From an uncultured Methanosarcinaceae archaeon (GTDB taxonomy: Archaea > Halobacteriota > Methanosarcinia > Methanosarcinales > Methanosarcinaceae): DNA of 64,000 bases. The DNA is taken from positions 116,578-180,577 of the forward strand of contig CAWHXP010000008.1 of assembly GCA_963833425.1 (NCBI GenBank), read 5' to 3'. Position numbers and translations under genes: made by a program. Positions 3,310 to 62,250 of this stretch are shown here, piece after piece. Numbering within the stretch: the first letter of the stretch is position 1; each line of letters starts with the position of its first letter. The notes beneath the pieces were generated by a model. That model searched no databases. It was not told the origin of the DNA and was given only the letters and a program-made list of their open reading frames with translations.

Positions 3310-3517
3310 AAGGATCAGGCCACCTAGAATTTAGAATTGAATATAGGGTTAGTATGTGCTGCTTTTTTAGGAAAAAGCTCAATGTTAAATTTGTGAAGAT
3401 TCCAAAGTATAGTAATAACATTATTAATATTTAATTTTTTTTTGATTATGAAAAATCTTATGTTCAATTCTTTTTCGTTTAGCAACTGTTTTTCGTATGA
3501 TTAATTTGAAGTAATTA
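3310..3517 (+). repeat. Dispersed upstream module, copy A
   Basis: ATCAGGCC...AATTTAGAA...TGCTTTTTTAGGAAAAAGCTCAATGTTAAATTTGTGAAGA aligns by eye to 42284-42368. Core TTTTTCGTTTAGCAACTGTTTTTCGTATGATTAATTTGAAGTAATT at 3471-3516. Confidence 0.75.
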
Positions 3518-3625
3518 GGATAATAAAAATAACTCTAGTTCGGTAAGTATATTTTCAATATATGAAAAAAGAATAAAATTTACAACATCAGCTGATTCAT
3601 AAAAATAAATTAGAGTGTGTATCGA

Positions 3626-3760
3626 ATGGGAAAACAAATATTAAACAGAACAAAAAATATACTGGTTTTTTACTGGTGGTGGTTTTGTAGTATCAGTGAC
3701 ATCTGTGGCAGTAAGCGCTGCCCCCATCATGGTGGACATCATCACCACCATCATCAATGA
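3626..3760 (+). CDS. His-rich miniprotein (ends PHHGGHHHHHHQ); probable scrambled signal peptide
   Basis: 44-codon ORF. Alternative frames read LLVVV and VVSVTSVAVSAAP, which resemble a signal peptide. Confidence 0.45.
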   Translation: MGKQILNRTKNILVFYWWWFCSISDICGSKRCPHHGGHHHHHHQ

Positions 3761-4025
3761 TATATCTAATCAAAACAATCACTGAATCTAAGCACTACTG
3801 TGTATGAAATTAAACAACATAATAGCCATTTTAAAAACTTCAAAAATAAATTTTACACTTTTTTGTCAGCAAACACTCTAAAGAGCAATGGTTAGCAAAA
3901 TAGCCGAAAGGATTTAAGATGGATAGAAGCTTCGAAAAGTAGAATGCAAATAACCGCAATGACAAGCGAAATAGGCTTTATACAAATAGCTGACGTATAA
4001 TTAATTATCTCTTGGGAGGTTAAAT

Positions 4026-4204
4026 ATACCTGACTTAATAGGCCTTGCAATATTTTTTTTAATATTTACTCTGATTTCGTATATATTAGGTGCACAGGGG
4101 ATTGAGGTTTTTCGATGGAAATCGCAAAACGGCTTATAATAATCTTTGTTATACTTGCTATCATCTCGGCTTTGTTTCTATCTGCTTTAATACCTACTGT
4201 TTAA
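4026..4204 (+). pseudogene. DUF1328 (UPF0391) small membrane protein
   Basis: GGGAGGT RBS, start decayed to ATA; reads PDLIGLAIFFLIFTLISYILGAQGI / FSMEIAKRLIIIFVILAIISALF with one frameshift. Confidence 0.7.
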
Positions 4205-4620
4205 AATAATTCAAAATCCAGAAAATAATATCATAACCGTTTTTACTTTTTTGGTCTCATATTTAAAGGCAACAATGTTTCTGTAAAGCCTGAGGAGTAT
4301 TAAAGTTTTTACCTTCTGCACAGTTTTTGTATAAAATCTCTGTATTTTCAGTTTTAATCAAAAATTTTAAGACCATTTTTATCTGAATTTTAAATAAATT
4401 AAAGATTTATTGAAGCCATTACATAATGAAAAGTTAAAATATTGCTATTAGATCAAATTAGGCACTAGCCTAATAATGAAGAAAAACGGGAAAATGAGAT
4501 GAGCATCAGATCGATTCTAAAAAAAGCAAATTTAGGCCCTAATTGATACATTTTGTTCCGACATTTACGAACAATCTGTTTTTCAAGATTGATCTGATTT
4601 CCAAACAAACTCTTAGAGGT

Positions 4621-5328
4621 TTAGTTTCGTTTTATGGCTATGTTAGTATTTTCCTTTACCAACCTGCCTTTTGAAAAATTGTATGTTATAAACTCACCTG
4701 TGGAGAAGCTGACTTCTCTTATATCCTTGTCAGAAATATTTTCAATATATTTGACTATAGATCTCAAACTGCCCAGATGGGCACAAACTATCACATTTTT
4801 TCCGTCTTTCATTGCAGGCATAACTTTTTGCTCGAAATAAGGCACAACACGCTCATACACAGCTTTGAGACTCTCACCTTTCGGTGGGCCTGGCTTGAAA
4901 TCCCAGCGCCAGGAAGCAAGCCTTTCAGGACCATATTTTTCTTCCATTTTCTGCTTTTCTTTGCCCTGAAGCTCTCCATAATAACGTTCGTTTAAAGCAG
5001 CTGTAAAGTATACTGGGATAAGACTTTTGTCGAGTTTTTTGGGGCAAGAATACCATTCGATCTTTCCTATTCCGTTTTCATCACCTACCTTTTCATGGAT
5101 CAAAATTCCTGTTTTTTTCTGCCTTGATAATATGACTAAAAGAGTTTCTTGTGTTCTGACAAGGTTTGAGGCAAAAGCAAGATCCATTTCTTTATCTTCA
5201 ATTTTTACCGCACAATCAAGAGCTTCTTCAATTCCTTTTCTGCTAAGAGGAATGTCCATCCAGCCTACAAATCTGTCATCGGGCTTCAAAAATGGCTCCC
5301 CATGCCTAACAAGTATAAGATATCCCAT
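4621..5328 (-). CDS. gpmA: 2,3-bisphosphoglycerate-dependent phosphoglycerate mutase (histidine phosphatase family)
   Basis: LILVRHG, LNERYYGELQG, PPKGESLK and NVIVCAH motifs; start set at MGYLILVRHG. Confidence 0.85.
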   Translation of the reverse strand: MGYLILVRHGEPFLKPDDRFVGWMDIPLSRKGIEEALDCAVKIEDKEMDLAFASNLVRTQETLLVILSRQKKTGILIHEKVGDENGIGKIEWYSCPKKLDKSLIPVYFTAALNERYYGELQGKEKQKMEEKYGPERLASWRWDFKPGPPKGESLKAVYERVVPYFEQKVMPAMKDGKNVIVCAHLGSLRSIVKYIENISDKDIREVSFSTGEFITYNFSKGRLVKENTNIAIKRN

Positions 5329-5394
5329 AGAATCGCATTCCAAAAAATTGCACAAACAAATTTTGACAATCTTCAACACTTACTGATATTAAGT

Positions 5395-5500
5395 AGTTAT
5401 TTTAAATTAATTTTAAGAAAAATAATTCCTGAATAAAATTTATTTCCTTATAAGATATTTTAACACGGACAATAATTTGATATAAATATTTTTTTTATAA
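5395..5500 (-). repeat. Dispersed upstream module, copy B (upstream of gpmA)
   Basis: Reverse strand TATCAAATTATTGTCCGTGTTAAAATATCTTATAAGGAAATAAATTTTATTCAGGAATTATTTTTCTTAAAATTAATTTAAAATAACT closely matches 26334-26420. Confidence 0.8.
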
Positions 5501-7111
5501 GTATCCTTGACTAAAATTTTTCTCTGTTGTTTCACTGATGCATACGTGTATAGCAAAATTTATGTATCTGTATTATATTAATCACTATTTTTATCAAATG
5601 AGAAAATTGATTTTGAGAGTATCAAAATTTTCTTACTGGTCTTAACTTATAGATAAAGTATAGAAATAACATTAAAAACTTTTTTTGGAATTCTTTCTCA
5701 AATCTGTTTACTGTAGTAAAAAATTGAATGTAGAGTATGATTCAGTTTAATTAGTTTCAGATTTTCCATGAGCTCCAGATGTTCTAGGAGTCCCATAAGT
5801 TCCATGAGTCTTGGATCAGCAACATTTCTTTAATCTATATGAAACTTAGGTAATTAGAATATTTTAGCATAAAAATATGCAGTGTTGTACCACATGATCA
5901 AAAGATTATCTTTTTCCTGCTCAGTTACAATGAATGATTTTGTACAGTAATGATACCAAATGTCTAGCTTACGAAATCGAACTAGTCCTCGGGGATCACA
6001 GATCATTTTTTCCAGTACTGCTTAAGCACTGAGTACATGTGTGTACACAAGCACAAAATTGCCTATACCATGAGTCGTATTCATTTTTGTGTACATACTC
6101 GAAAACAAAAACGCGATAATGTATATCTTCCAATAGATCTGTACTTATGTTATATTTAATCAGGTAGATGTTGACAGATGCGATAATCAAAGGCTTTGAA
6201 CGAGTCCTGACTATGCAGGAAGCGGCTAATAATTCTAAGGGTAAGTCGGATCCAATAGTGCTGCAAGAAGCCTGAATCAGGGAGATACACGAGCAGACAA
6301 AGTCAATGTTAATCATATAGACGTCAAGATAAGGATTAACTCAACAAGCCAAAATAGACGATCTAAAAACTCGCATCCAACCACTTCATGGCTAATTGGA
6401 TGTTACGGGAGCCGCTGCACACTTCGATTGAATAGACAGAAATGCTGGATGAGAGTGTTTACAAAAATGCTGTGCATATTCAAAGTTTAATTCCTTAAAA
6501 TAAGAGGGTAAACATCAATCTGCTTCCAGCTGATGCAGAAACAAGTAAGGCATGGCAGAAGTTTTGCCAAGTTAAGCTGTCATTAAACCAGAAGACAAAT
6601 CCAAGTCTTTATTTATCCCTGAGTATTCATTCTTAAATTCTTGCACAAAAATTTAATGTTTCCAGCAATTAAAATCTAAATGCGATGCTACGTAATTTAT
6701 CAATTTTAGTGTCATAAAATCGTTGTGGTTCAAATTATTTCAGCACATTAGATCATAGATATTAAGATCTTAATGTATATGCAAGAATTCTCAAAATGAT
6801 ATTTGTGCATTAGATCCAATAAACTATATAATAAGTTTTAGATATTTCTAAATATATTGACAACTTTCAAACAGTGCAAAATCTTGCTTTATTGGGGGCA
6901 TAAAATGAAAGACGAACTGGATATAGGGCTGCTTTCTCGAATAATGTTATAAGCCAAAATCAGGCTGCAGACAAAATGACAGTAGATGTTTATGACTTAT
7001 ATGGTAAAAAATTAATAGAAGGAGTTACGCCGGCAAATTCAGTCCACGCTCTTGAATCGATTTCTATAACATCGAAAGAGAAATAAAAATTCCACTAAAA
7101 TATTAAATAAG

Positions 7112-7358: not shown

Positions 7359-8672
<1,314 letters not shown>

Positions 8673-11121: not shown

Positions 11122-12617
11122 GTTGATCCCTTCGACCAGAATTCAATTTTTGATTAACGATTTAGTTTCTGATCTATATTTAATATGATTTATACTTAAA
11201 GATTATCCTGTAAAAACCTTTTATATATTTTATCTATTGTTGAGCTTTAAAATGAAGCTATGGTGTGCTAAATGGCCTTCTGAGATGCCGACAAATTTAG
11301 TTATGTTCAGATGAAAATAACTAAATTTGAAATATATAGAGTTTTGATTCAAATTTTCTTGTGATTTGCATAATACTCTCCCTTAATTACGATGGAATTT
11401 TTTTAGACATTTATAGTGAACTCGAAATTGGAACATTGATGAAGTGCTGCTAAAACTTTGGAAGCATAATTTAGCTCATTCTATGTGCAAAATAAATTCT
11501 TTGAAATACCTTGTTTCACTTACATTCACTATTATATTTATTTTCAATACTTTGAAATTCTTCCAAATGAAAGAGTACTTGATTCACCAAACAGTAAGTT
11601 TTACCTAAATGATTATGCCCTAAGATAAACCTTTAAAAATGTTAATTGAGCATATCTACTCGATTTTTCATGAAAATTGCCTTGAAAATGATGGGAATAT
11701 ATATTGCCATACAGAAATCAATTTTTTGACAGATTTATTGGCATTGGTATTGATTTCAAAAAGGGAACTGGTTCCAGATATCCATTTCAAGAAACTACTG
11801 TCGAGAATTTCATAAACTCCTCCACATTTGAGTATTGAGTGGTTTTGATATCCTAACAATAATTTTTACTCATGAAAAACTCTTATTAACTTTGTTCTTT
11901 GAAAAGAATATACAACTATCTTCAGTCAATTAGAAACAAATTTACTGAAATTTATTCCTTAATTAATTCGAATCTTTTTGTACCATTTTTGAGTTCAGAT
12001 TTTAACAAACAGTTTTGAAGCAGGCTTGGAGTTAAAGTAATCATTATTTTCAAAATACTGTTTTACAGCAACAGCTGGTCTTTCTGGTGGGAGCAGTCAG
12101 TAATAATAGCTCCTGTGTGCATTGTAACAAGTATAGGTTACAGGATTAAAACTCAATAGTAATGGTAGCCGATCCTGTGAAAATCGAGTTTCTTGGATCT
12201 GTTAAGATCATTATTGATATAATTTCATTTGTTATAATTTTAAACGTATTTTGATTGAAATAATTGAAAAAAAGAAAAGTATGTGTATAAATCAAAAAAA
12301 GATTCACTAATGGATTAGATCTACAAAATAGAAGAATAACTGGCAAATTCTGTATGAAAATAAAACTATCTATATAGAGATCAAGGTAAAAAATAATTAA
12401 GTTGATAAATTTATAAATATTCTATTTAATTTAATGTTGTATTAGCCTTATTTTAGGCAAATCATAATATCCAAAAAGGAAAAAGTAAATTATATTTAAA
12501 CAAAAATTGTATACAATGGCTTTAATTTAAACAGCTATAATTTTAATGTTGATGAATATATATTTAGATGTAGCGCTATATGTATATAATAATAACTCTG
12601 GCGGCAATATTATCTAT

Positions 12618-14166: not shown

Positions 14167-14434
14167 GTCTAGATTTTTGGGCTCATTTTATCCTGGAATT
14201 TTATATGTGATCCATCCGCTTTGCTGGTACTACTAGTAGTTTATCATTGGGGCTAGCCCAAAATTCATTTTAGTTTTAATCATTTAGGTTTTTCATAGAC
14301 AAGATTTAGAGGAGCAAATTTCGAATTTTGGGATGAATCCTCAAATAAAATACATATCATGGAAATAGTTGCATAATCCATCTCTTCACTAAAAAACCGG
14401 CACTCTTATTTTTATTTGTTGTTCTAAGAGAATA
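14167..14434 (+). repeat. ~270-bp direct repeat, copy 1 (3' end of the membrane gene, MITE and flank)
   Basis: Aligns by eye to 18802-19071. Confidence 0.92.
14249..14341. mobile_element. MITE-like element with CCCAAAATTC/GAATTTTGGG inverted ends
   Basis: IR visible; second copy at ~18886-18978. Confidence 0.55.
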
Positions 14435-14440
14435 AAGTTT

Positions 14441-14670
14441 GTGAAGACATCCAAAAATAATAAAAACATGATTAATATAAAATTATGTTTGGGTCTTACA
14501 ACATTTTATGAGTGACTGGATTAATTCTGAGACTATAAATTGCATTGTAAATATTAAATTGTTGTTCGGGTTTGAAAAATTTTATGTGAAAATAAATTTT
14601 ATTAAGAAACGATTTTTTGTATAATTCATTTGAAATAAATAAGGAGTTAATTCTACATTGTAGCTTAAAG
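14441..14670 (+). repeat. Dispersed upstream module, copy C (upstream of the YcaC-like gene)
   Basis: GTGAAGACATCCAAAAATAATAAAAACATGATTAATATAAAATT matches 42361-42404; core AAATTTTATTAAGAAACGATTTTTTGTATAATTCATTTGAAATAAAT at 14594-14640. Confidence 0.8.
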
Positions 14671-14809
14671 TGACCAAAAGAGAATGAGGTATAACTGCTA
14701 GTTTGCATGCGCATTGGAATAATTGTAGACAGTTTTGATAAAACTTCGATTTCAACAAATGCTTTTATTTTATTATATATACAAATTTCTTTCATAGGAA
14801 GAAATTGCA

Positions 14810-15425
14810 ATGACAAGTCTACATATACGTGATCAGGTGAATGATCAGCTGCTTACTCCGAAAAATGCGGCGCTTATAATAATTGACTACCAGCCGGTTC
14901 AGATGGCCTCTATAGCCTCTATGGACCGTGAGCTTCTGGTCGACAACATCGTTCGCGTGGTTAAAATAGCGCAGGCATACGAATTACCGATAGTGCTGTC
15001 GACTGTGAACGTGAACAACGGTATCAACAAACCGACAATCCGTCAGTTGCAAGAAGTGCTAACCGGGATCGAGCAGCTGGACCGCACGACGATCAATGCC
15101 TGGGAAGACAACGAATTGTTCAAGTATTCAAGGCAACGGGCCGCAAGAAGCTAATTATGACCGCACTGTGGACTGAAGCATGCCTCATGTTTCTTCGCTT
15201 GACGCAATACACAACGGCTACGAGATCTATGCAGTAGTTGATGCGGTTGCCGGCACATACGTCGAAGCACACCGGGCGGGGCTGAAGCGGATAGTCCAGG
15301 AAAGTGGGAAACTAGTGAGCTGGGTACAACTCATCTGTGAGCTTCAGCGCGACTGGATCCGTAAGGAAAAAGTGGAGCTTTTCAAGCAAATTTTGTTCGA
15401 TCCCATAGAACCCTGGAGCGAGTAG
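14810..15425 (+). pseudogene. Isochorismatase-family (YcaC-like) hydrolase, frameshifted
   Basis: LLTPKNAALIIIDYQP, DRTTINAWED, ALWTEAC, VSWVQLICELQRDW spread across three frames. Confidence 0.85.
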
Positions 15426-18416: not shown

Positions 18417-18887
18417 ATGTCTTTCACTGAAGCACAAGAACTGTTTTCATTATTCTTTGCAGTTTATTTCGCTCTGATAATAGACCGTTCTCATGAAATG
18501 TATAAACCTTGGGACACTTATAACGCCTGGAAGGGAAAGTCTCACAATATAAAACGTTTATTAACGGCATGGATTATTTTGTTTATCGTACCACTATTGC
18601 ATTTCTCAATCTTATTTGTCCTTCTAGGATTAATTGACGTTCGATTAGATATGACAATTAACGGTATTTTAAATGTTGCTTCGATCGGCTTGGGTTCATT
18701 TTTTGAATTTGGTTACTTCAGAATATATGAAGCTTTTCTACATAGATATTCAGAATCTTTTTTCACAGATGAAGATAGAATACAAAAAGAGCGTTTGATT
18801 CGTCCGGATTTTTGTGCTCATTTTATTCCTGGAATTTTATATGTGATCCTATCCGCTTTGCTGGTGCTACTAGCAGTTTATCATTGA
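18417..18887 (+). CDS. Hypothetical multi-pass membrane protein
   Basis: 156-aa intact ORF with about 4 hydrophobic segments. Confidence 0.75.
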   Translation: MSFTEAQELFSLFFAVYFALIIDRSHEMYKPWDTYNAWKGKSHNIKRLLTAWIILFIVPLLHFSILFVLLGLIDVRLDMTINGILNVASIGLGSFFEFGYFRIYEAFLHRYSESFFTDEDRIQKERLIRPDFCAHFIPGILYVILSALLVLLAVYH

Positions 18888-19071
18888 GACTAGCCCAAAA
18901 TTCATTTTAGTTTTAATCATTTAGGCTTTTCATAGACAAGATTTAGAGGAGCAAATTTCGAATTTTAGGATGAACCCTCAAATAAAAAATATCCCATGAA
19001 AATTGTTGCATAAACGATCTCTTCACAAAAAAGCCGACATACTTATTTTTATTTGTTGCTCCGAGAGAATA
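18802..19071 (+). repeat. ~270-bp direct repeat, copy 2
   Basis: Aligns by eye to 14167-14434. Confidence 0.92.
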
Positions 19072-24860: not shown

Positions 24861-26319
24861 GCTTATAACAACTTTATTCAGTGGAACCAGATTCGCTGGT
24901 TGGTTACATATTGGTTTGTTACAATTTTTGCAGGTGCAGTGCCCCTCCTTCAGTATGGTGGAATCTCTGCATTTATGGTGAGGGTGTCGGGATTTTAGTT
25001 TTTGTGTTTGTCTGTCTGTGTTTGTTTCTCATGGCAAACACAATTAAGTATCATGAAAAAAGCATTTCAGATTTTAACAAAAAATAAATTCCCTAAATGT
25101 ATCAGGCACACAAAAGGAAGTGATTCGCACAGGTTTGCCCTTCAAGTTCGAGAGCAAGGTGATGTTTAATACAGCAACATTCTTTTTTAGTCACTTATTG
25201 TGGTGCTCGGTATGATGTCGCTAATTGTTGCATCTATCCAACGCTGTAGGTGAAATGATATCCTTGAGGGCATGCTTCTTTCATTTGTTGGATGTGCACT
25301 TGGGCTATCAGGAAAACTTTACGCACTGTGCTCCAAATACTCTAAACTTAAGTGCCTCAAAAATTTAATATTCTTTGCATAGAGAGAGTTTTACCATAGG
25401 TTAGATAATACCCGAAAGGCTGGAAAATGATTTAGTTACTCAGTTATATTTCTGTATATTTTATCTCTAATTAGCAGGCTTATGAACAAAAACTTTGACT
25501 AGTCTTTGCTCTTATATTTCATTTCTAACGTTGAGTTTTTCCTACTATAAGATGTGATTGATTAAAGTTCCATATTTCAATCCTAAAAAGACATCGAATC
25601 GCTTAGTATCTAGTCCATTACATCCAAATTGTGGACACATTTCAAATGGGTAATAATACTAAAATAAACAAGGAATAGGCTACTGAAAGGCTCAGGCAAG
25701 GTTTTCATACAAATATATTGGATGAAGCTAGTTACCATAAAATAGATCCTAGCGTCGCTAAATTAATTGGATTTTAGAAAAAATCAGGGTGTACCTTGTG
25801 TGATTAGTGGTTTAGACTGCATGTTCGGTAGAGGAATGTGTGAATTTGAAGAGATCTGTGGAATTTCTATTGCATCCACCTCAATGCTCTCACTACAGGT
25901 GTTATCTCTGTGTTGGATTCCTAAGGCCCATTACTGATAATACCGTCGGATTCTCTCAAAATGGCAAAGCTTCCAAACAGATTAGACGAATTGCAGATGC
26001 CGTTGATGTAGTGGGAGCTACTATAAAAAACAGTCAATAAAGGTATGCTATAAGTTTAGTTGCTCTTAGTTCACATGCTCAAATAATTTCTCTAAAACAA
26101 TTTCTCACACCGAAATTTGGTTTAATCCAAGCAAGACATCTGAGATATCGGAATCTTCACACCTACAATAATTCAAATCCATTTGCAGATTCCTGTTTGT
26201 ATTTCACAAATAGAATTGACAATTTTCATATGCAAATTTGGACCCAGGAAATTTCAATAGATCTTCAAATGGAATCATTGCATATCATGCTGTGTTCTTC
26301 CAATTTGGTGATTATCTGA

Positions 26320-26447
26320 TAAAACATAATTAATATCAAATTGTTGTTCGATGTTAAAACATTTTATTTGGAAATAATTTTTATTCAGAAACTATTTTTT
26401 ATAATTAATTTGAAATAACTAAGTAGGTAATTACATGGTGTAGTCTA
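26320..26447 (+). repeat. Dispersed upstream module, copy D
   Basis: Core AATTTTTATTCAGAAACTATTTTTTATAATTAATTTGAAATAACT at 26376-26420 is nearly identical to 42537-42583. Confidence 0.85.
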
Positions 26448-26750
26448 AAAAGAATTTTGATAAGCACCTAAACCTTGTCAGATGCTTGCAAATGTTATAT
26501 GAAATACTTGTGAAAACTAGGAGTTAATCAAAAATCACTTAAAACATCTACATGAGATAAAGTGATAGTAGTTGACACAATAAAGTTACTACTGAACTTG
26601 TTGAATTCCTTCATCAATGTGTGATCAACGCTCCTCTGAGAGTTCAGCTAATCTCCTTCGGACCCTTCATGTCCAGTCCGATTGCCATCCTAATTCAGAT
26701 CACCGATGTTGTAATCTCATATATTCGCTTCGATGAAGATAGAGCAAAAC

Positions 26751-27244
26751 ATGACGATCAGAAAGGTCGAAATCGATCGATTCAGCTTGACATCTTCCAA
26801 GCCGTTTGAGGTGGTCGTGGCGGCGCTAGAGGCGGCGATTGGCCATCCAAATATGGATGAGTTCTTGAAGGCAACTCAGGATGCATTGACCTTTGCTGAA
26901 ATGTAAAGCATGGTCCATAGGGCCTTGGCAGAACTGGGCTGATGATGTTCATGAAACTCGATCATGGTGTGATTCTGCGTAAGGAGACTGGGCTCGACAC
27001 TCCGAAAGTCGTGCGCTTTTTGATCGGCAATCCGCTAATCATGAAAGAAATGGTAAAGCATGTTCCTGACGCTGGATCTTGCGCTCCGACTACGATTCTG
27101 GTGGATGAGCGGTCCGACGGGGTTCATTTGTCATATGACAAGATGGCCAGTCTTTTGGCCCCCTACAGAAACCCCGACGCACTTGCTGTCGCTCGGGATC
27201 TGGACTCGAAAATCGAGAAATTTCTTCGAGAGTCTGGGGTTTGA
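26751..27244 (+). pseudogene. DUF302 family protein (long type)
   Basis: MTIRKVEIDRFSLTSSKPFE..., internal TAA plus frameshift, then FLIGNPLIM...AGSCAPTTILV...VHLSYD. Confidence 0.8.
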
Positions 27245-28209: not shown

Positions 28210-29875
28210 ATGAGCTTTTCGTCAAAAACTCAGGAAGAGGGGGACAAAAATAGAACATTTAATGGGGTTTGCTCTCTCTTCCGCTTTGTACGGGCAGAAA
28301 CTTCTCGAGGATTCCGAGCTAAACAAAGGTAAAGCATTCAAGACACCCAACGTACTGCGCTCGGTCTAGAGGGTCTACTGCCTCCTTCAATGAGACAATC
28401 TATCAGCAACAACAGCGTGTACTCCGGCAGTTAGTGCTCAAGACTACTGAACTCGATCGCTATATCAACTTGATTCAGCTTGTTGACTCAAACGAGACTC
28501 TCTTCTACCGGTCTTGATGTCCTATCCTGCATACTTCTTGCCTGTAGTTTACGATCCGACCGTCGGCGAAGCTTGCCTGAAGTTTGGCCACATCTACCGT
28601 CGACCCCGAATGTACATTTCGATAAAAGATAAGGGGAAAATCCGTAAGGTCCTTGCCAACTGGCCTGAGAATGTGCGCGTCATATGCTTAAGCTCAAGAG
28701 GGCGAATTCTAGGCCTAGGGATCTCGGGGCCAAAGGTATGGGCACCCCGATCGGCAAACTGCAGCTGTACGCAGCTTGTGCTGGCGTATCTCCAAAAGGC
28801 TTCTCCCAATCCTGCGAGACTTTGGAACGAACAATCGCGAATTACTCAACGATCCACTCTATTTCGGGCTCAAACGAGGCCCGCATTAGAGAAGACGATT
28901 CTTTAGTGGATGAGTTTGTAGAGGATGTCCAGGAGCACTTCAAAGAACGCTGTATCCATTTTGAAGATTGGAGGGGAATAGACGCCTTTCACTACCTGAT
29001 CGCTATCTTGACAAGTTATGTTGCTTCAACGATGATATCCAGGGCACAGGTAGCGTAACTGTCGCAGGATTGTTAAATGCTACGCGTATCACTAACCAGA
29101 AGCTCAAGGACCAACGTGACTCTTTTTCGGGAAGGGTTTTAGCTGGTATTTGAATTGCCAATATGATTGCTTCTGCAATGCAACTTGAGGGGCTATCCTC
29201 AGAACAAGCCCACAGTCGCATATGGCTGTTCAATAGCAAAGGCTTGATTGAAAATACACGCCATGATCTGATACAAGTGCAGAAGCTGTATGCGCATGCA
29301 CTTCCTCCGACTAATGATCTTCTCACGGCGATCAATTCAATCAAGCCTGCTATAATAATCGGCGTTAGCACCGTCGGCAAATCTTTCAATCAAGCCGTCA
29401 TTTAAGCTATCTCCAAGATAAATCGAAGGCTTTCATTTTTGCTATGTCGAATCCGACTGAAAGGCGGAATATACTGCTGAAGAGGCCTACCGATGGTCTA
29501 GCTGCAGAGCCATTTATGCAGTCGGTGTCCAATTCCCTCCAGTTCATTACAACGGCGATATCTTTCTGTCTGGGCAGGCGAACAATTTTTACATATATCC
29601 GGCGATCGGCCTTGCAGCCCAAGTCACACGAGCAAAGAGCATCACTTACGAAATGTTCATCGAGGCCGCGAAAGCGACGGCAGACCAGGTGACCGATGAA
29701 CAGCTCAAGAAAGGTTTGCTGTTCCCACCTCAAAGTAATATTCTGGAGAACGAAGTACGCACAGCCGTACGAATTGCTACTTTAATTTTCAATGTGATCT
29801 AGCGAGAGTCGATAAGCCAAAGTGCGTCAATGCCTGGCTACGAGTGATGCTCTACAAACATAATACAGCGACTAG
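28210..29875 (+). pseudogene. NAD(P)-dependent malic enzyme (MaeA type), many frameshifts and stops
   Basis: [41 protein letters not shown] and IIGVST fragments. Confidence 0.9.
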
Positions 29876-29895
29876 CATTTATAGGAGAGGAGAGT

Positions 29896-31390
29896 TTGCC
29901 AATTGACGTGGATATACAAAGAAAAGATGTTGAACAAGTGCCTTCAATTTTCGATCTGTCTGTCGGCACTGGAGCGACTGGCAAGCGAAAAGAAAGTGAT
30001 TCATTGGGGGAAGTTGAGATTCCCGCCGACCATTACTGGGGGGGCCAAACCCAGAGGTCTCTGCTTCACTTCTCCGTCGGCGACGACCACATGCCTAAGG
30101 AGGTCTATCATGCTTATGGATACGTGAAAAAGGCAGCTGCCCTTGTCAACACGCAGCCTACGGAAAAATACCTCAGTGGAAAGCTGAATTGATAGCAGGG
30201 TTGCAGACTAAATTATCGCAGGCATACTGGACATTGAATTCCCACTCTATGTCTGGCAGACTGGCTCTGGAACTCAGTCGAAATGAACGTAAATGAAGTC
30301 ATAAGCAATCGCGCCATCCAGCTCGTTAGTGGAAGCCTTGGCAGCAAGCTTACTATCCATCCAAATACGATGTTAACATGAGTCAGTCATCCAACGATAC
30401 CTTTCCTACAGCCATGCACAGCAACTGTGCTCGATTCAGTAACCGCCTAATTCCCGCAGTTACCGCTCTTGAAGAGTCCAGATGGACTAAAGCACGGGAA
30501 TGGGTGGACATCGTCAAGATCGGTCGAATGCGTCTTCAGGACGCAACACCACTTACAGTGGGACAGGAGTGGTCTGGCTACGCCACACAGCTCGATGACG
30601 CGTTGGCACTTGTCAAGCAATCCCTTCAAGGATTATATCGATTGGCCATAGGAGGCACTGCTGTCGGAACAGGCATGAATACCCCACCAGACTTCGGCGA
30701 AAGTGTTGCCGTCGAGATCTCCAGGTTCACCGTTCATCCATTCATCACAGCTCCAAATAAATTCGCTGCCCAAGGATCCTAGATGCGATGGTAGCCCAAG
30801 CGCGGACTTGCTTGCTTTAGCAGTCGCACTGATGAAGATCGTGAATGATCCGCGCTGGCTTGGTTCGGGACCAAGGTCAGGTCTCCACAAACTCATTCTG
30901 CCCAGTACGAGCCAGGCAGCTCAATTATGCCTGGAAAAGTCAATCCGACTAAGGAGGAAGCCATGATAATGGTGAGCATCCAGGTGATTGGGGGGACAAT
31001 GCCGTCGCATGTGCTGGTTCACATGGTAATTCCGAGCTTAAAGCTATGCGCCCTATAATCATAAGTAATATCTTGCATTCTGCACGCATTCTCGGTGACG
31101 CTTTCATCAAGTTCCGTGAGTATGGAATCAAGGGAATCATGCTCAATCGGAGCCGTATCAATGAATTTGTGAGCAATTCCCTCATGCTTGTGACAGCATT
31201 GAGTCCTGTTATAGGCTACGACAAAGCTTCTGCAATTGCCCACTGAGCACTGAATGAGAATACTACACTGAGGGAGGCTGCAGTGAAAGGAGGTTTCATA
31301 AGCGCGGATGATTTTGACAGGATTGTGGATCCGAAGAAGATGGTCAGGAATCCGCGACGCGACCTGAAGCTAGCTTCAGAGTATAGGTCC
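29896..31390 (+). pseudogene. fumC: Class II fumarate hydratase
   Basis: [46 protein letters not shown] and LVTALSPVIGYDKA in broken frames. Confidence 0.92.
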
Positions 31391-31531
31391 AACTTTACAT
31401 ATTTTCTTTTTTTGTTTATTCAGACATTCGGTATTGTAAATTCTTCGGAGGAGGGGTATATTTATAGGTCTACACTAGCTGAAAAAAATTTTCATTCCCC
31501 GAAGACTTTACAGTCCATGCTTTGAGCCATA

Positions 31532-32623: not shown

Positions 32624-32629
32624 CTCATT

Positions 32630-33400: not shown

Positions 33401-33469
33401 GCCAAGTACTGTTAAAATATCTTTGCAGCGGCATCCACGTAGTCGGTCTAAGCTACCATTATCTCGACC

Positions 33470-33836: not shown

Positions 33837-34019
33837 CGTATCCTATCTTCTCAAGCTGACAGTTCATGCGGCTCCCGGAAAAGGTGATCTTGAATGTCGG
33901 GTAGCCTTTAGCTATTAAATTGATCTCTCAAAGGCTCGTTCTGGAACCGGACAAAATCGATAACAGGGGATTGCGACCTTTCGATAATATTGTCCAATCT
34001 CATTTTATATATTAATGAT

Positions 34020-34300
34020 ATACATGCCTATAGTTGCGTATTTTTGTAGCAGTAGTTATTTTAAATTAATTGTAAGAAAAGTAGTTTCTAAACGAAAAAT
34101 AATCCAGCATAAAAATTTACAAAATCAAAAAACAAATGAATATTAATAATTATTTTTTTATTATTTCCGAAGTCTTCATAATCTAATACTATGCATAGAT
34201 TTTGCTATAAACCTATGCATTAATTATCAGACAATAAAGAAAAATAATAAAGCAAGTTGGAAGTTTTGATAATATCCACTCATTCGTTAGATTCTTCAAA
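34020..34300 (-). repeat. Dispersed upstream module, copy E (upstream of the decayed POX operon)
   Basis: 34020-34192 aligns to 41640-41810; core AGTTATTTTAAATTAATTGTAAGAAAAGTAGTTTCTAAACGAAAAAT at 34054-34100. Confidence 0.85.
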
Positions 34301-40733: not shown

Positions 40734-41529
40734 TCACTTCGGGTACATCTGCCGGATGAACGCCTTGTCCATGTCCGAAAGATCCGTATTATTGTTCGTC
40801 GCCTTGTGATCCAGGAATAGCTGAGCCGGGAACAGGTACAACATTATCGATTTTGGGTCGAAAAGAGGCGCATATCCCCCCTCGAACGAATATTTCTCGA
40901 GGATATTTGGTCTATTTCCTTCTTCTTCCAGTAATTAGGAGGCCCCTCGAAGTAAGCATATTCAGATCACTATCCCAGTTGAATTGCTCGTTGGGACTCT
41001 GGTGCTCGTGGATGCAGCCCAACAAGTGCCCGAATTCGGGACGACCACACGCCGCCATTCCGTATCATCGGTCGTCTAGTTGAGCCAGCCAAAGTTCATA
41101 CTCGGCCGGTCCCTGGGGGACACCCAACGCTTCCACACCTACGGTAGACCACGAACTATACCCCTCCCAAGTACGCGATCCTGACGTCTTCGTCCTGGGT
41201 ATCCACAAAGGTGATGTTGATGTTTTCATAGTCCATCCATTCGCTGGCCATCTTGATGGTCTTATCATGCTGGACTTCCGAGCCGCCGAGGAAACGGCAC
41301 TTGAGCGAATGGCCTCCAGGCCACTTTTTCCCAGTGATAATGGCTATCGGTTCGATCCCGATTGGCTGACTCGGTCGAGATCATGGAAGAGCTCGCGCGG
41401 TGACTTGAAATCCGTGCCGTGTAATGCGGCTGAGATGTGTGCTTGGTGTATCATTCTGTTGATTGGACGCAGATAGTCTGGTAAGACACGATCGCAACAG
41501 ATCTTTAGATCTACTGGCTGTTTATTCAT
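40734..41529 (-). pseudogene. Metzincin (astacin/M12-like) zinc metallopeptidase
   Basis: KKWPGGHSLKCRFLGGS, DVRIA, SWSTVG, (H)EFGHLLGCIHEHQSP; GC-rich; frameshifted. Confidence 0.8.
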
Positions 41530-41639: not shown

Positions 41640-41830
41640 GTACATGCATACATACATTTAATTTTATCATTGCAATTATTTTAAATTAATTATAAGGAAA
41701 ATGATTTCTAAACAAAAATTAATTCCTCATAAAATTTTTCACAATCGAAAAATAATTTAATATCAAAATTGCTTTTTATTATTTCCGAAGTTCTTAGAAT
41801 TAGCATTATGTTTTCCTAAAGAAGCAAGAT
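41640..41830 (-). repeat. Dispersed upstream module, copy F
   Basis: Core AATTATTTTAAATTAATTATAAGGAAAATGATTTCTAAACAAAAATT at 41674-41720; TTTTATTATTTCCGAAGT shared with copy E. Confidence 0.85.
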
Positions 41831-42283: not shown

Positions 42284-42608
42284 ATCAGGCCTTTAAAATT
42301 TAGAAGTTAATCTAAGATTAATCGTATTGCTTTTTAGGGAAAAGTTCAATGTCAAATTCCTGAAGACCTCCTAAAATAATAAAAACATAGCTAATATAAA
42401 ATTGTTGTTAGATTTTAAAATATTTGATTGAAAAGTAAATTTTGTTCAAAAGCTATTTTCTGTTTAATTGAATTTTATGAAGCCGTAATTTTTGTTCAAA
42501 AGTCATTTTCTGCATAATTGAATTTAATTCGATCGTAATTTTTATTCAGAAACTATTTTTTGTATAATTAATTTAAAATAATTAAGAGGGTAATTGAACA
42601 TTGTATCT
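42284..42608 (+). repeat. Dispersed upstream module, copy G, with core triplicated at 50-bp period
   Basis: Units start at 42435, 42485 and 42535. Confidence 0.85.
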
Positions 42609-42831
42609 ATGAACGATCAACCAAAATATTGAGTTTATAGTAATTTACTATAGCATAATATTTCTTTAGGCGCAACAAACTTTGTGGAGATTTTACTTCG
42701 GTCGGAGAAAGTACTGGAGGAAACAAAGGATAAAAATTAACTAGTGATATTCTTTTTATCATCACATGGTGTATTATTACCAAAGTTCTTTGCAAAGTTA
42801 TGAAGCTGCTACAAGATCAAGGTGGAATCAG

Positions 42832-43098
42832 ATGACACGCTATCGCATTACAATTTTCGGACAAACTAAAGAGGCCATGGCTGACTTAGTTCGTAAACAC
42901 AAAATTCATGTCTTGCGTAACACCGTTCGCAGTAAAGACACTGGTCATGCTGTTGATGCCATCGCGCAGCTGAATGAGATTCAATTGCTCGAAGCTGCTG
43001 GTTATTCCATTCAACGTCACGAGGATGTTGATGAAGTTGGCAAAGCCCGTCAGAAAGAAGTAGGGCGAGGCAATCGGTATATTTCGGAGGAGTCTTAA
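42832..43098 (+). CDS. Small protein resembling a carboxypeptidase activation (pro) domain
   Basis: AAGGTGG RBS; TAATG overlap with the M14 gene; YRITI..DLV..VDAIA..I.LLEAAGY.I pattern. Confidence 0.7.
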   Translation: MTRYRITIFGQTKEAMADLVRKHKIHVLRNTVRSKDTGHAVDAIAQLNEIQLLEAAGYSIQRHEDVDEVGKARQKEVGRGNRYISEES

Positions 43099-44207
43099 TG
43101 CCTTACCATAACGTCGAAGAAGTAGAATCTGCTCTCTTGGTTGCGACGTCTGCGCCTTATAGAAACTTCACTGAACTTATCACTCTACCAAATCTTACTT
43201 GGGAAACCCGTCAATGCAATGCCATAAAGATTGCAAGCGGTAATAATTCTGGGCGGTCCGGTGTATATTTCCTAGGCGGTGTCCACGCACGTGAGTGGGG
43301 AAGCCCGGATATACTTATCTACTTTGTCCAACAGCTTGAGAAAGCCTACTTGAATGAAAAAGGTCTTACATTCGGCAATAAAATTTTTTCTGCCGCTGAC
43401 ATCAAAACCATTGTTAACACACTCGATATAGTTGTTTTCCCCCAAGCCAATCCCGATGGGCGCAACTATAGTATGACTGTAGATCCCATGTGGCGTAAGA
43501 ACCGTCGCACACTAGCTCCAAATGTAAATACTTGTAATGGTGCCTGTGTCGGTGTCGATATAAACCGTAACTACGATTTTCTCTGCGATTTCCCAAGATA
43601 TTTTAATCCAATGGCCCCTGTTCAAACTTCTACAGATCCATGTGACTACCAAGTTTATTGTGGGCCTTCAGCTTTCTCTGAACCAGAGACCAAGAACGCC
43701 GAGTGGATTTTCGATAACTTCCCCAATATCCGCTTTTTTATCGATTTGCACAGCTATAGCGGGGTTATTCTTTATGGTTGGGGTGACGACGATGATCAGA
43801 CGACTGATCCAAATATGAATTTTCAAAACCCGAAATACAATGGCCTCCGAGGAATTGTATCTGAAAAACCATACGCTTCAGATTATAAGGAATACATACC
43901 ATTGGAGGATCGTCGTGTTTCTGTTGACCTCGCCAATACTTTCAGGGATGGAATTAAGGCTGTTAGAGGCACCACCTACACTGTCAAACCGTCTGTAGAT
44001 CTATATCCGACTTCAGGTACCTCCACTGATTATGCCTACAGCCGTCATTTTGTTAATGGCAATAAAGAGAAAATTTTGGCCTTTACCCTTGAATGGGGTT
44101 TAGACTCATTAGAAACTCCGTTCCATCCTCCATACAACGAGATGCAAGAAATTATATATGAGACAACATCTGGCCTGCTTGCTTTTTGCCTCAAAATTTG
44201 TAAATAA
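43098..44207 (+). CDS. M14 zinc carboxypeptidase (carboxypeptidase T-like catalytic domain)
   Basis: HAREW, NPDG, WRKNR, GVDINRNY, FSEPET, DLHSY, YPTSGTSTDY, FTLE. Confidence 0.93.
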   Translation: MPYHNVEEVESALLVATSAPYRNFTELITLPNLTWETRQCNAIKIASGNNSGRSGVYFLGGVHAREWGSPDILIYFVQQLEKAYLNEKGLTFGNKIFSAADIKTIVNTLDIVVFPQANPDGRNYSMTVDPMWRKNRRTLAPNVNTCNGACVGVDINRNYDFLCDFPRYFNPMAPVQTSTDPCDYQVYCGPSAFSEPETKNAEWIFDNFPNIRFFIDLHSYSGVILYGWGDDDDQTTDPNMNFQNPKYNGLRGIVSEKPYASDYKEYIPLEDRRVSVDLANTFRDGIKAVRGTTYTVKPSVDLYPTSGTSTDYAYSRHFVNGNKEKILAFTLEWGLDSLETPFHPPYNEMQEIIYETTSGLLAFCLKICK

Positions 44208-44512
44208 GAAAATTGCTTGGTCTTGAAAATACGATTAGTATTACGATAAAAGTTTTACCCGCTGCTGTATGGCTTAAATTTTTGGGCATTAAATTTAACA
44301 GAGACAAAATCAGGGAGGTTGAAGATTAATTAATAGAGTAGAAAGTGAAAGAGAGCAATTTCTATTGTTGGAATTGCCATCTCTAAAGGCAAAAAGCTTA
44401 ATCTTAACAGCACTGTGGATATTACCCGCCTTGAGAGCAAAAGGGATTTGATCTTAACAGCACTAACGACGATGAACGTGCCACGATACTCTGAAATTTA
44501 GAGATTAATTGT

Positions 44513-46250
44513 ATGAACTACTGTAATGAGAATATTGATGAGAAAAAAATTAAGCAGAGTCATTGGTCGTGTACCACCATTGCTGTTGGAAAAGATGCAA
44601 CTTTTAATGGCTCGGTTTATAGTGGCTCACTCCGATGACGATGTTGGTGACGAGAGCGTAATCTATGTTCCTGCAGCTGAATTACCCCGATGGGTGCTAT
44701 GCGCCAGGTCTATTACGACACCACCAGTCTGGGACACAATCCTCGATGCAATGCTACCGAGCTAGGCCGCTATGTAGGAATCTCCAGAGGACCCGGTTAT
44801 CACACAGAGGATTATCTGGAAAGCAGACCATTAGGGAAAATACCTCAGGTCAGGCATACATACGCTTATTTTGATCACATTTACGGAATTATGAATGAAA
44901 AACAACTGATGATTGTGGAATGTACCTGTGGAGCTAAAATTCACCCAGAACCTGAACCCAGAAAAAATATATTATATCCGTCTTAACTTCTCGTATTGCT
45001 TTGGAACGTTGCTCCAAAGCAAAAGAAGCAGTTGAACTTCTCGGGGAGTTAATTGAGAAATATGGCCTCTACGGTACTGGGGAAACCTTATTGATTGGAG
45101 ACCCCGATGAAGTTTGGGTCATGGAGAAGTGCGGATATAAAGACTAAATAGGAAGTAAATTCTCTGAAAACGGAACAGGAGGTATCTGGGTAGCGCAAGG
45201 GTTCCAGATGCCGATTTGTTTGTCGCCGCTAATCAGTTCCGCATCCGTGATATTCATAAAGATAAGGACAAGAATTCAGAGGATCTTGATACATTCCTCG
45301 AAGCTCTTCGATGTATGTATAAACCAGGGCTGGCTGCAGCTTTCAGCCACTAAGCTAGATTGGGTCTCTACAGTAAGTTGAGGGGAATATAGACATGCTT
45401 ATTATTCACTTCCCCGAGTCTGGCGAGTGCTGAGCAAGATGGCTCCTAATTTGAAACTATCTACCTGGGTTGAGGATGGTTATACGCACGCTTATCCCTT
45501 CTCGGTAAAACCGAGCCAGAAGCTCTCAGTTGCCGATGTGGCAGCGATTTACCGTGATCATTATGACGGGATCGAATTTGATCTGTCTAAAGGACGCGCA
45601 GCAGGTCCCTTTAATGACCCCATTCGATATGAAAACAATCCAGACTAAGGTGATTCATTTAATTTAAATACGTACCACATAAAGGGCGCCTGGGAGCGTC
45701 CCATTTCTATCGTTCGATGCGGCATACTATGGATAAATCAGGGAAGAACGTTTTTACCGGATCCAATTGGTGGTGTCTCTTGGATTGGACTTGACAGGCC
45801 AAAAGCTAACTGTTTGATGCCATTTTATGTTGGCATCAATAAATTGCCAAAATCAATTAAAACAATGGACCTAAGTAAATTAGATCGCAATAGTGCTTGG
45901 TGGGTATTCAATTTTGTTGCAAATTATGCTACCATTAAATATTCATACATATGCAGGATATTTACGAAACACAAAAAGAATTGGAAAACGATTCTTATTG
46001 TGCTGTGGCCGATTTTGAAAAGGAGCTAAGTAAAAAGGGCAGTAATGATTTAACAGCTTTCTGTGAGAGTAATGCTGAAAAGATAATCTCTAAATGGTGG
46101 AATTTATCAGAAATGCTATCTTCAAATACAATAACGGCTTCATTACAACTGAGAATAACATCATGCATGAAGTCGATTATCCCGAAGACTGGCTTAAAGA
46201 TGTTGGTTACGATGAAGGTCCAATCAGTTATGAAACAAGGGAATAGATGA
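44513..46250 (+). pseudogene. C69 family dipeptidase
   Basis: CTTIAVGKDAT, VAHSDDD, GIMNEKQLMIVECT, AANQFRIR, YRDHYDG...DLSKG.AAGPF, ERPIS, SAWWVFNFVAN in broken frames. Confidence 0.88.
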
Positions 46251-46615
46251 CATTTGTCTCAAAATTGCATTTAATTCTTCAATAGGATATGAATCTAGCC
46301 TGATTCGAATTCGATAGCAATTATTTTGGAAGTTTAAATCGGGTTAACCTCTAATAAAATATCATTAGTTGAATGGATGAATTGAGTTTTGTTATATACT
46401 GTGAGAGATTGGATAATCTTCAAAAATCGCAATCAGTGCATATGAGAAACAATGTACTTAAGAACCATAATTACTAGGATTGCCCATTCAAATAATTTAA
46501 AAATATTTGTAACGGAAGTGGTTGCAGGGTTACTTATTATTTTAGTGTTACTGAAGATGGTTTTAAGAGTGTATTGTAATAATAAAATTTATCCAGAGGA
46601 ATTCCTGTTACTAAA

Positions 46616-59796: not shown

Positions 59797-60057
59797 TTAC
59801 TTGTAAAGTACCACGATCCTTCCACGAACCTCTATCAGTGTTGATCTTGTGGCACATGCAATTACTTCAGCAATAGCTTTCAAGTCTTTTCTTTCTTCAG
59901 CACTCTTCAGTACCCTTACCTTCACAAGCTTTTTAGCTTTCATCTGCTTATTCAATTCTTCGATTAAAGTATCGGTTACCCCATTTTTTCCTATTTTAAG
60001 AACAGGGTCAATTTGGTTCGCTTCAGATTTCAATTGATATAATTTTTTCTTCTCCAT
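59797..60057 (-). CDS. YhbY/CRM-domain RNA-binding protein
   Basis: PVLKIGKNGVTDTLIEEL...LVKVRVL...RGRIVVLY; GAGGAAGG RBS. Confidence 0.92.
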   Translation of the reverse strand: MEKKKLYQLKSEANQIDPVLKIGKNGVTDTLIEELNKQMKAKKLVKVRVLKSAEERKDLKAIAEVIACATRSTLIEVRGRIVVLYK

Positions 60058-60399
60058 TTCCCTTCCTCGAATTGATAATGATAAAACTCTCACTGCCAAC
60101 AACGAAATACTTCTATTTCTACCAACTAAAATTTTATAACTGCTACGAAGAATCCATTTCCTTCTGTAAACACTTTACAATTGAACCGTATTTTACCTCT
60201 ATCTCATTTGCACCTTTATTCAAACTTACTGCGACAATGTGGATGAATAAAGTTGATTTCTCGTTCTTCTCTTCAGCTTCTATATCAATGTTTCCTAATA
60301 AACTTAGAGGCAATCAGTAAATACTCTTTTCAAAATACATCCAAATTTTTCCGCCATCTTCTCCTAAAAATTTAGCATAAAAATACACGAGACCATCTA

Positions 60400-60800
60400 T
60401 AGCACTCGCTCTCATTTCCTCTTTTCTTATAGTTGCAATTATCCCACCAACCAATTGTACACATTTTTTAACTTAGAATATCTCAATTTCAAAAAATTCC
60501 ACTTTTGAATTTCTCCCACTTTGATATCCATCTCGTCTTTGTATATTCTAACCATTTATAACTATGTGCCGTATAGTTGTGACAATTTCATTTGACAGAG
60601 CAATAGTTACCTTTGCATATATACTTGACTTCTTCTTTCGGTTAAAATACTTTTTAAACTTTCCATTTTTCTTCCTGCTGAATTAGCTATCTGCATGTGA
60701 GTCCACATTACTACCAAGGATACTCTTTTTATAATCCCCCGTTGTTAAATTCATCGCAGATAATTATATATTTGGAAAAACTCACGCCCTGGAACAAGAT
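60400..60800 (-). mobile_element. IS110-family transposase C-terminal remnant
   Basis: Decayed KFKKYFNRKKKSSIYAKVTIALSNEIVTTIRHIV and DGYQ...IEIF..GGIIATIRK resemble the IS110 C-terminus (KA.IALARK motif), as recalled. Confidence 0.55.
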
Positions 60801-62097
60801 TATTTCATTTTGACCATATTTTTTTCTATTCTGGTTCATTATTCTCTAATTTTAAAGAAGCTTCAACTATTCTCAAAATATTTTTTTGTTTCAATATTAT
60901 CAACTGATAGAGATTATTAAAAAATAATGCACAAAATCTCCAGATTAACTCTTTGTTGCTTTTCTTGTTTTTGCTTCACTTTCTCGGGATTTATCCGCTT
61001 TTGTATACTTAGGATTTTGAATGGATAACAATAGAATCCTAAATCGATCCTTCTTTTATTTTCAAACAAACGCAATTAAGTTGCTATGCAACTGTCCCAA
61101 ATTTAATCTTCTTTATAATCTTTATAATCATCAATAGTTTTTTCCTAAATAACCAGACTGTTACACTGTCTTATACATACTCACGAAAACCAAGAAATAT
61201 TCTGATAGAAATTCAGTCAATATATTTTTCAAGTTCTAAGTCTGAAAGAACGTGGCATTACTGCAAAACAAGCACATCGAAAATAATGATTAATTCAGCT
61301 TCAGATCAGCTAATGAGGCTGTTTTGTTAACAATACATAGATTTAAAAGTGGTGCGAAAAGCTTCTTCCAATTAATTAAGAAATTAATTTCAGCAGTGTG
61401 CCTCCAACTGACTGGAGATGTTTGTATTCACTATTAGGTTTCTTTCCATCCCTTTTGCTGTGACTCTTGAGATTTGATTTTTTTATTGACAAATAAAATA
61501 AAAAGAAGAATGCTTACTACTGCTACGACGGTTTTGATTTAAGCGAAACTCTAAAAGAGAAATGACCTTCTAGGGAGTTCTTTAATTTTAAGATCCAAGA
61601 CCCTCAATCTGAGCAACACCTAGGGTTTGAAGCACACAAAAGAATTTCGTCATTTTTCGATAAGCAAAGCGAATCGCTTAAAGCATATTCCATCCTTTAG
61701 GTTGAGGTGGTAGAATGCAATTTGGTTATACAAATATTTGAGACAAACTAAATAAATGGAATTAAGAGGCGCAATTTTTCAATTTTTGCATTCTTAAAGA
61801 CCGTTTTTTTCTTGACAAAAAAATTATTGATCACTTGGTTTAATAACATGAAAAAATACAACTTTTAAAGTATATTGGTTAGAATTGTATGAAAAATAAA
61901 AGAAAGTTGAATACAAAAATAGCTAGCAAATGAAAATTAACTATTCGCCTACAAAAATCACTTGATAATACCTATTTTGATACAACAGAAACTTATGATT
62001 TCTTACTAATGAGAAAATAAAAGAATTATCATTAGCCTACAGTTAATGGAAATAAACCCAACAAAACCCGTTAATCAATTTTAGTAAAGGTAGCTAA

Positions 62098-62250
62098 ATA
62101 TATCGTTTTTTAGGTTGAATAATTACTTTCCTGTGAAAGCAAAAGAGTGGAAGGACACATGAAATTTGACATTACGTTTAATTATATAGATGTAGAATTC
62201 ATTTACCTGTTTAGCAACTATTATTCGTCGAAAGTTAAATTAATTTTAAG
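62098..62250 (+). repeat. Dispersed upstream module, degenerate copy H
   Basis: TTTTTTAGG...TGTGAA... then TGTTTAGCAACTATT...AAATTAATTTTAAG; partial match to copy A. Confidence 0.4.

Follow-up and report, generated by a model that had tools for sequence, protein, structure and literature searches.

A stretch of 64,000 nucleotides (nt) from an uncultured Methanosarcinaceae archaeon (contig CAWHXP010000008.1), referred to below as the window, contains seven copies of an AT-rich non-coding module located upstream of unrelated genes. This module is the promoter of a multi-copy small-RNA family. In one clade, the promoter has been copied in front of approximately 100 protein-coding genes, which it likely transcribes as a co-regulated set, probably of a starvation or stress type. 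The original prediction, made from the window alone, had proposed a duplicated regulatory cassette or portable promoter; our results support this proposal and sharpen it to the reused promoter of a small-RNA family. Window coordinates are positions in the 64,000-nt stretch, and G000 denotes the genome that carries it.

The module is widespread in G000. A hidden Markov model (HMM) built from six window copies yielded 142 matches at E ≤ 0.01, and none in the reversed genome at E ≤ 0.1. A second round of searching identified 148 matches at E ≤ 1e-3 in 139 clusters, none within called genes. No match was found in the reversed genome or in a genome shuffled in windows of 30 base pairs (bp), and the similarity therefore exceeds that of shuffled AT-rich DNA. 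The conserved part of the module spans approximately 110 nt and ends in ...TAATTAATTTAAAATAA on its 3′ side, beyond which the flanks sort into subfamilies. The 3′ end of the 70-bp core is its most conserved part and consists of a transcription factor B (TFB) recognition element (BRE; ATTAAT) directly followed by a TATA box (TTAAWATA), the elements of the archaeal BRE/TATA consensus. Overall conservation drops sharply at the TATA end, and in the commonest subtype the motif YTGGAG is conserved approximately 20 nt past BRE and TATA. Upstream, at about −45 to −90, a block of T/A tracts comprises the dyad TTGYTT-N2-AAACAA, direct repeats of ~18 bp and expandable 50-bp units. A scan for sigma-70 promoters and terminators returned nothing above shuffled sequences, but such a scan does not apply to archaea. 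We also considered an additional basal factor reading the promoter, and rejected it after finding one TFB gene and one TATA-binding protein (TBP) gene in G000 (80% complete); genome G031 has three TBP genes.

The RNA was recognized in 20 stretches from low-copy genomes; in most of these stretches, the module is followed by a GC-richer domain of ~125 nt and a U-rich tail. The RNA is ~180 nt long and adopts a three-way junction with a long closing stem and two hairpins. Across 26 sequences, 89% of the cells were paired and 17 of 32 pairs presented two-sided (compensatory) changes, although this support is not independent since the structure was derived from the same rows. Fitting 20 distinct newly found rows, which include one spurious antisense match, to this model gave 91% of cells paired and 21 of 32 compensatory pairs. 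The excess of G-U over A-C pairs (126 vs. 27) suggests that the RNA lies on the strand of the module; folding z-scores did not tell the strands apart (−4.0 vs. −3.8). The RNA model matched 58 of the 59 genomes of the genus Methanosarcina (at least 1–23 matches per genome) and all five genomes available from one sister genus, with no match in the 102 other genomes of the class sample. In both genera, a syntenic tandem array of 2–6 promoter-RNA units adjoins tRNA-Gln(TTG) and is followed by a gene that we take to be MtaA/URO-D-like. Records with the RNA hairpin bear Methanosarcina, Methanosarcinaceae or related labels, with contigs of bacterial metagenome-assembled genomes (MAGs) representing 2 of 65. 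Full promoter-RNA units were found on a Bacteroidales and a Gammaproteobacteria MAG contig (L121 and L136), which are likely mis-binned.

Searches of Rfam 15 gave no match on the module or the RNA, whether in the window, in 20 loci at E ≤ 0.1 or in 20 loci at E ≤ 1. No conserved peptide was found in the RNA: 67 of 85 copies contain open reading frames (ORFs) of at least 8 codons starting with ATG, but these vary in frame and location, and 18 copies have none. A role of the RNA as a cis-acting leader was rejected because the neighboring genes differ in kind and direction. We found no description of the family or its promoter in the literature searched, including the parts of PMC4152357 and bioRxiv 2025.10.28.685009 examined for the RNA; further supplements or Jaeger 2009 (PNAS) may list members. 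This is apparently an undescribed, genus-wide family of structured RNAs in methanogens, of which one member has already been catalogued. By eye, several RNA copies (L060, L065, L066, L067, L074, L075 and L077) often adjoin PAS/sensor-kinase-like genes, and a HEARO RNA (L061:2320-2524) and a group II intron fragment (L002:867-1006) lie less than 1 kb from RNA copies.

Several lines of evidence connect the module to transcription of the RNA. The core was detected upstream of 81 of 90 RNA copies, 77 of which have it within 50–89 nt of the model start, against 0 of 90 in reversed controls. No gaps are needed to align the 70-bp core of the RNA promoters with that of the window copies, and a second model built mostly from RNA promoters of other genomes includes five of the seven window copies among its 62 rows. 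In the complete genome G031, all 10 strong promoter matches precede RNA genes, covering 10 of its 11 RNA genes. At RNA-linked copies in a relative, transcripts begin ~31 nt downstream of the TATA box, counted from its first T. Reads from this relative (run X24) map to the three RNAs of the array, in the orientation predicted for them, and leave the modules uncovered. These raw reads were oriented by the neighboring tRNA, and bins were fixed beforehand on two predicted starts, across which depth was 16.6 then 0 and 2.4 then 0.08; the reads pile up on the first ~55 nt of the RNA. The suggestion that the module itself is a leader RNA is thus wrong, since coverage is confined to the RNA that follows it, although driving an RNA is the normal role of the module. 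Among RNA runs of assembled contigs, X1 and X9 were flat across the whole stretch and X21 had no coverage, so that these three runs were uninformative.

We then compared the frequency of promoter and RNA across genomes. A 42-letter core pattern, allowing up to three mismatches, had 18–51 matches in 6 of the 59 genus genomes and 0–5 in the rest. With the promoter model, 53 genomes presented 1–28 matches, close to their RNA counts (0–23). In contrast, G000, G059, G060 and G063 each had at least 84 promoters for 17–20 RNAs, G046 had 58 for 12 and G045 had 47 for 11. These six genomes form one branch with support of 100/100 in a nadA tree, a single-gene tree with midpoint root that includes the 30 closest of the 59 genomes. 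Next to this branch, G058 and G040 have 27–28 promoters and 20–23 RNAs. The promoter thus far outnumbers the RNA in the six-genome clade, where it faces genes. The 5′ leader of the RNA is kept in 13 of 119 copies without full RNA, including the window copy ending at 14639, compared to 0 of 119 when reversed, which indicates that the gene-facing copies are tied by descent to the RNA gene. The RNAs of G000 retain the fold (306 of 344 cells paired).

The 140 cores of G000 collapse to 135 copies, of which 16 have a full RNA, 3 a partial RNA and 116 no RNA; ~2–6 false positives are expected at the core score used. The original prediction held that every copy points toward the next gene. Across the genome, 112 of 139 clusters have this orientation, compared to 2623 of 5000 for the null, so that it is strongly favored but not an absolute rule. 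Among RNA-less copies, 100 of 116 face a gene on the same strand (null expectation 53%), and for 70 this gene is no more than 350 nt away (21%). The distance to the next gene ranges from 47 to more than 1000 nt, and the nearest starts, at 47–68 nt, never fall within the predicted promoter. Close pairs of cores are divergent in nine cases, spaced 176–664 nt back to back, tandem in four and convergent in none.

The 93 genes located within 600 nt downstream of the promoter belong to up to 63 BLAST families, 47 of them singletons. A Pfam domain was assigned to 21 of 28 chosen genes: malic enzyme, DUF1269 (two genes), MscL, PfpI, sulfatase, hexapeptide (gamma-carbonic-anhydrase-like), flavodoxin-fold, DUF2769, isochorismatase, DUF308, PLD, GT4 (two genes), DUF1254, M10/astacin-like, CsbD, TPR and pentapeptide, as well as two weak matches. 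A stress regulon, as originally suggested, would be compatible with such genes. Small secreted proteins rich in His and Gly are expanded in G000 and are often found behind the promoter (e.g., C20:103503-103931 and C3:398227-398808), with no or weak Pfam matches. Many of the downstream genes had been described as GC-richer and foreign, but their median GC content equals that of other genes (0.405 for 66 genes vs. 0.405 for 2491 others, P = 0.8), although the high-GC tail is heavier behind the promoter (27% vs. 14% above 45% GC). Foreign origin is therefore not shown by GC content; these genes are accessory and often broken. The M14 gene is present in 16 of the 59 genus genomes. Homologues of gpmA have 4–6 matches in four high-copy genomes and one in most others.

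The copies differ in a way that informs how they spread. Identity to the nearest copy has a median of 84%, and similarity ends raggedly on both sides, with the 3′ end varying from −1 to +270 nt (10th–90th percentile). Homology runs beyond the TATA box into subfamily-specific leaders and into the RNA. Near-identical cassettes precede different genes or none; at C3:3618 and C17:25406 of G000, 600 nt around two cassettes are 99% identical, which represents a recent duplication or an assembly overlap. In other genomes, the 19 best gpmA homologue loci lack a core within 900 nt, and the 14 M14 homologue loci lack one as well. Similar tandem 50-bp units occur in locus L195 of G059, before a different gene than in G000. 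In G059, we examined 61 cores from 40 stretches, 53 of which have downstream DNA homologous to G000; a G000 core lies within 700 nt at 20 of these and within 36 nt at 10. This comparison suggests that some promoter-gene pairings are inherited and that many turn over. Relatives are heavily rearranged around the copies. We found neither fixed ends with terminal inverted repeats, the ends being ragged and the nine back-to-back pairs variable in length, nor a constant platform-gene junction. The pattern fits promoter duplication and recombination rather than a bounded element or a capture site, and the suggested role of the module as the fixed arm of a gene-insertion system is not supported, given its ragged ends and the variable position of the next gene.

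How the reuse of this promoter might operate can be sketched. The T/A-tract block at about −45 to −90 would bind a putative activator, which may recruit TFB and TBP. Copies would spread by ordinary DNA duplication and recombination, without a dedicated transposase, and the copied unit could be a promoter together with its gene, or a promoter that retains the initial ~60 nt of the RNA and becomes joined to a new gene. The RNA itself would most likely act in trans as a decoy, its G-rich loops being presented to a protein or to a C/U-rich RNA. More speculatively, we tentatively propose a general-stress regulon of ~100 genes, comparable in function to the SigB regulon, which might have arisen by mass duplication of the decoy-RNA promoter. 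In that scenario, no new sigma-like or basal factor would be needed and the putative activator of the RNA would have become a global regulator.

Several observations weigh against promoter reuse as the basis of a co-regulated set. The read evidence comes from one run, with 42 reads and short inserts at one locus of another species, and some opposite-strand reads occur near this locus. Activity of the gene-facing copies in the G000 clade is predicted from sequence. Broken genes lie in front of five of the seven window copies, whose scores are no lower than those of the other two, 16 of the 116 RNA-less copies have no same-strand gene in front, and many copies may be relics. The 63 downstream families are an upper figure because the home-made gene caller splits pseudogenes, and 16 of them have 2–10 members, such that part of the copy number reflects gene-family duplication. 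At 33 of the 53 G059 cores, no G000 core is found near the homologous DNA, a count affected by the 80% completeness of G000 and blurred by paralogy. The stress label derives from gene names and one nitrogen-limitation value. Finally, the RNAs of G000 have lost the G-rich loops (GGGG in the P3 loop in 0 of 11 vs. 14 of 15), which indicates that the decoy role may not hold in this clade.

We regard it as unlikely that the extra copies are mostly inert relics, i.e., promoter-RNA units duplicated with accessory DNA in a decaying, repeat-rich genome, in which the RNA eroded and no regulon exists. This would be consistent with the many broken downstream genes, the location of copies where long ORFs are sparse (0.34 vs. 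0.40), the different gene pairing at most loci between G000 and G059 and the leader remnants in 13 of 119 copies. Decay should, however, erode both parts, yet 116 of 135 copies have lost the RNA and the promoter still lies close to its consensus. The strong bias in orientation and distance also argues against it, as do 10 loci at which two species share both the gene and the position of the core in front of it. An interpretation of the module as one outward-facing end of a mobile element that is non-autonomous and carries end promoters, such as a miniature inverted-repeat transposable element (MITE) or a Correia-like element, is improbable. The nine back-to-back pairs, the sharp drop in conservation at the TATA end and the restriction of the burst to one clade would favor such an element, but most copies are single, both ends are ragged, homology continues past the TATA box, and in other genomes module and RNA gene are paired 1:1 within a syntenic array. 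An integron-like platform that captures foreign genes, with the module as its fixed arm, is very improbable: although the genes behind the module are unrelated and patchy and the closest gpmA and M14 homologues elsewhere lack it, there is no constant junction, GC content is unshifted, many downstream families have expanded within the lineage and do not look like single arrivals, and the ancestral role is that of an RNA promoter.

Reuse of the small-RNA promoter would offer a traceable archaeal case of regulon birth through promoter copying. The ancestral state, with promoter and RNA at ~1:1, is kept in cultured and genetically tractable relatives, and the derived state, with ~7 promoters per RNA, is found in one clade. 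The 70-bp promoter lends itself to immediate testing, in reporter form and as a bait to capture its regulator.

In the window, nhmmer matches were located at 3410–3515 (+), 5395–5499 (−), 14536–14638 (+), 26318–26420 (+), 34054–34160 (−), 41675–41778 (−) and 42376–42582 (+). Seven of the eight copies originally named were recovered (best piece per locus, E from 1.7e-19 to 5e-11); the eighth, at 62098–62250, had no nhmmer match and a best core score of −23.9, compared to 18.6–58 for real copies. The alignment confirmed that further upstream blocks are present in some copies, and indeed no copy lies in front of serS, nadA, yhbY or the acyl-CoA cluster. All seven copies are of the gene-facing kind without full RNA; none carries the RNA domain, whose best match in the window had E = 0.029. 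Pfam searches confirmed the labels gpmA, isochorismatase (YcaC-like), DUF302, M14 and PASTA; the gene called pyruvate oxidase is a TPP_enzyme_C fragment only, and the M12 label was not recovered. Predicted starts below were computed from TATA spacing.

The long-form cassette at 3355–3515 (+; E 1.9e-15, core score 42), with upstream blocks placed by alignment, has a TATA-like box at 3505–3515 and a predicted start at ~3536. It precedes an apparently broken gene, identified from its translation, for a His-rich small secreted-type peptide (3626–3760, +) of the MGKQ/MKK..LAVLL family, which is found behind many module copies. The short-form cassette at 5395–5499 (−; E 7.5e-14, score 47; TATA-like 5406–5396, start ~5375) faces an intact gpmA-like histidine phosphatase gene (4621–5328, −; PF00300). 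The cassette at 14435–14639 (+; TATA-like 14629–14639, start ~14660) contains an internal duplication, with a partial upstream duplicate at 14456–14521. A remnant of the small-RNA 5′ leader (14648–14701, +; leader HMM E 0.002) lies within the predicted 5′ untranslated region of the YcaC-like isochorismatase-domain gene, which is split into two ORFs (14810–15425, +; PF00857 on each piece). A second short-form cassette, at 26318–26420 (+; E 1.7e-19, start ~26441), precedes a split DUF302 gene (26733–27244, +; PF03625 on the second piece). On the opposite strand, the cassette at 34054–34185 (−; E 8e-17, score 50; TATA-like 34065–34055, start ~34034) faces remnants of a thiamine pyrophosphate (TPP)-enzyme gene (33335–33836, −; PF02775 on 33335–33682). 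The long form at 41675–41830 (−; E 2.1e-17, score 48; TATA-like 41685–41675, start ~41654) faces a GC-rich broken gene (40735–41529, −), metalloprotease-like by eye, with two fragments lacking a Pfam match. Finally, the long form at 42327–42582 (+; start ~42603) has three tandem 50-bp units (42438, 42488 and 42538), of which only the last ends in a TATA-like box (42572–42582), and precedes a small ORF and an intact M14 zinc carboxypeptidase gene (42766–44207, +; PF00246).

Other features of the window were also recorded. Runs of broken genes at 28500–33850 and 44500–46300 (malic enzyme, fumarase-like lyase, flavin mononucleotide oxidoreductase, TPP enzyme and others) adjoin intact serS, nadA and acyl-CoA synthetase genes, and the coding density of G000 is ~54% genome-wide with our own gene caller. 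A dispersed MITE-like repeat at 11800–12086 has 127 BLAST matches in G000 (97 over 60% of its length) and many in G059, G060 and G063; like most other local repeats, it is not tied to the module. Two clade-wide repeats at 2230–2560 and 2740–3314 have 25 and 23 matches in G000, the second stopping where the cassette at 3310 begins. A 110-nt repeat at 5558–5667 may be a second promoter-like block; four of its 15 copies have a core no more than 450 nt away, a distance that takes in 4.5% of intergenic DNA. A 221-nt duplication (14214–14434 and 18851–19071, 90% identical) ends exactly at the start of the 14435 cassette.

Bacterial CsrB/C and RsmX/Y/Z are multi-copy small RNAs that titrate a protein, share an upstream activating sequence and present purine-rich loop motifs. 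Across the genus, the family described here resembles them in its paralogous RNA genes under one upstream sequence and in its repeated loop motifs, but the motifs are lost in G000, so that the resemblance is partial. In contrast to the Csr/Rsm RNAs, it is archaeal, its loops are UGGGGG rather than GGA, and any CsrA-like partner is hypothetical. Another comparison is with sRNA162 and sRNA171 of Methanosarcina mazei, which, according to the parts of PMC3510493 consulted, are ~190 nt long, Methanosarcina-specific, duplicated with their promoter and present stable 5′ fragments of 55–65 nt; our family is similar in these respects, its reads likewise accumulating on the first ~55 nt. They are, however, single copy in M. 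acetivorans and M. barkeri, lie beside an ArsR gene and form three separate stem-loops, whereas the new family reaches 23 copies, has other neighbors and folds into a closed three-way junction; copy number, neighbors and fold thus rule out their identity.

The catalogued member is M. mazei spRNA12, a single entry in the supplements of PMC11456600 consulted, where it is a 109-nt small-protein RNA (NC_003901.1:1230920-1231028) with curated small ORFs, one peptide and a translation efficiency of ~0.17–0.18. Judged by eye, it is orthologous to unit three of the tRNA-Gln array (L063), and it starts at the same offset from the promoter as other RNA-linked copies. It is expressed, with an RNA log2 fold change of +2.02 (~4-fold); the sign is shared with sRNA154 and glnA, which indicates that it is up under nitrogen limitation. 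Its ATG is not retained in other aligned RNA copies. The family, fold, full length and shared promoter are absent from the main-text passages of PMC11456600 consulted, and a literature search for spRNA12 by name found no papers.

The closest parallel to the copied promoter itself is provided by putative mobile promoters (Nijveen, Matus-Garcia, van Passel 2012, PMC3575422), described in the parts consulted as similar upstream sequences found mostly in pairs, with an unknown mechanism of movement. As in those cases, highly similar sequences (at least 80% identity over at least 50 nt; here a median of 84%) precede non-paralogous genes, although some of our pairs are paralogous, and match no known insertion sequence or Rfam family. 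The module differs from them by its ~135 copies, its traceable ancestor as a small-RNA promoter, its clade-limited burst and its archaeal BRE/TATA layout. Promoter reuse is thus a known phenomenon, which is here attached to an apparently undescribed RNA family.

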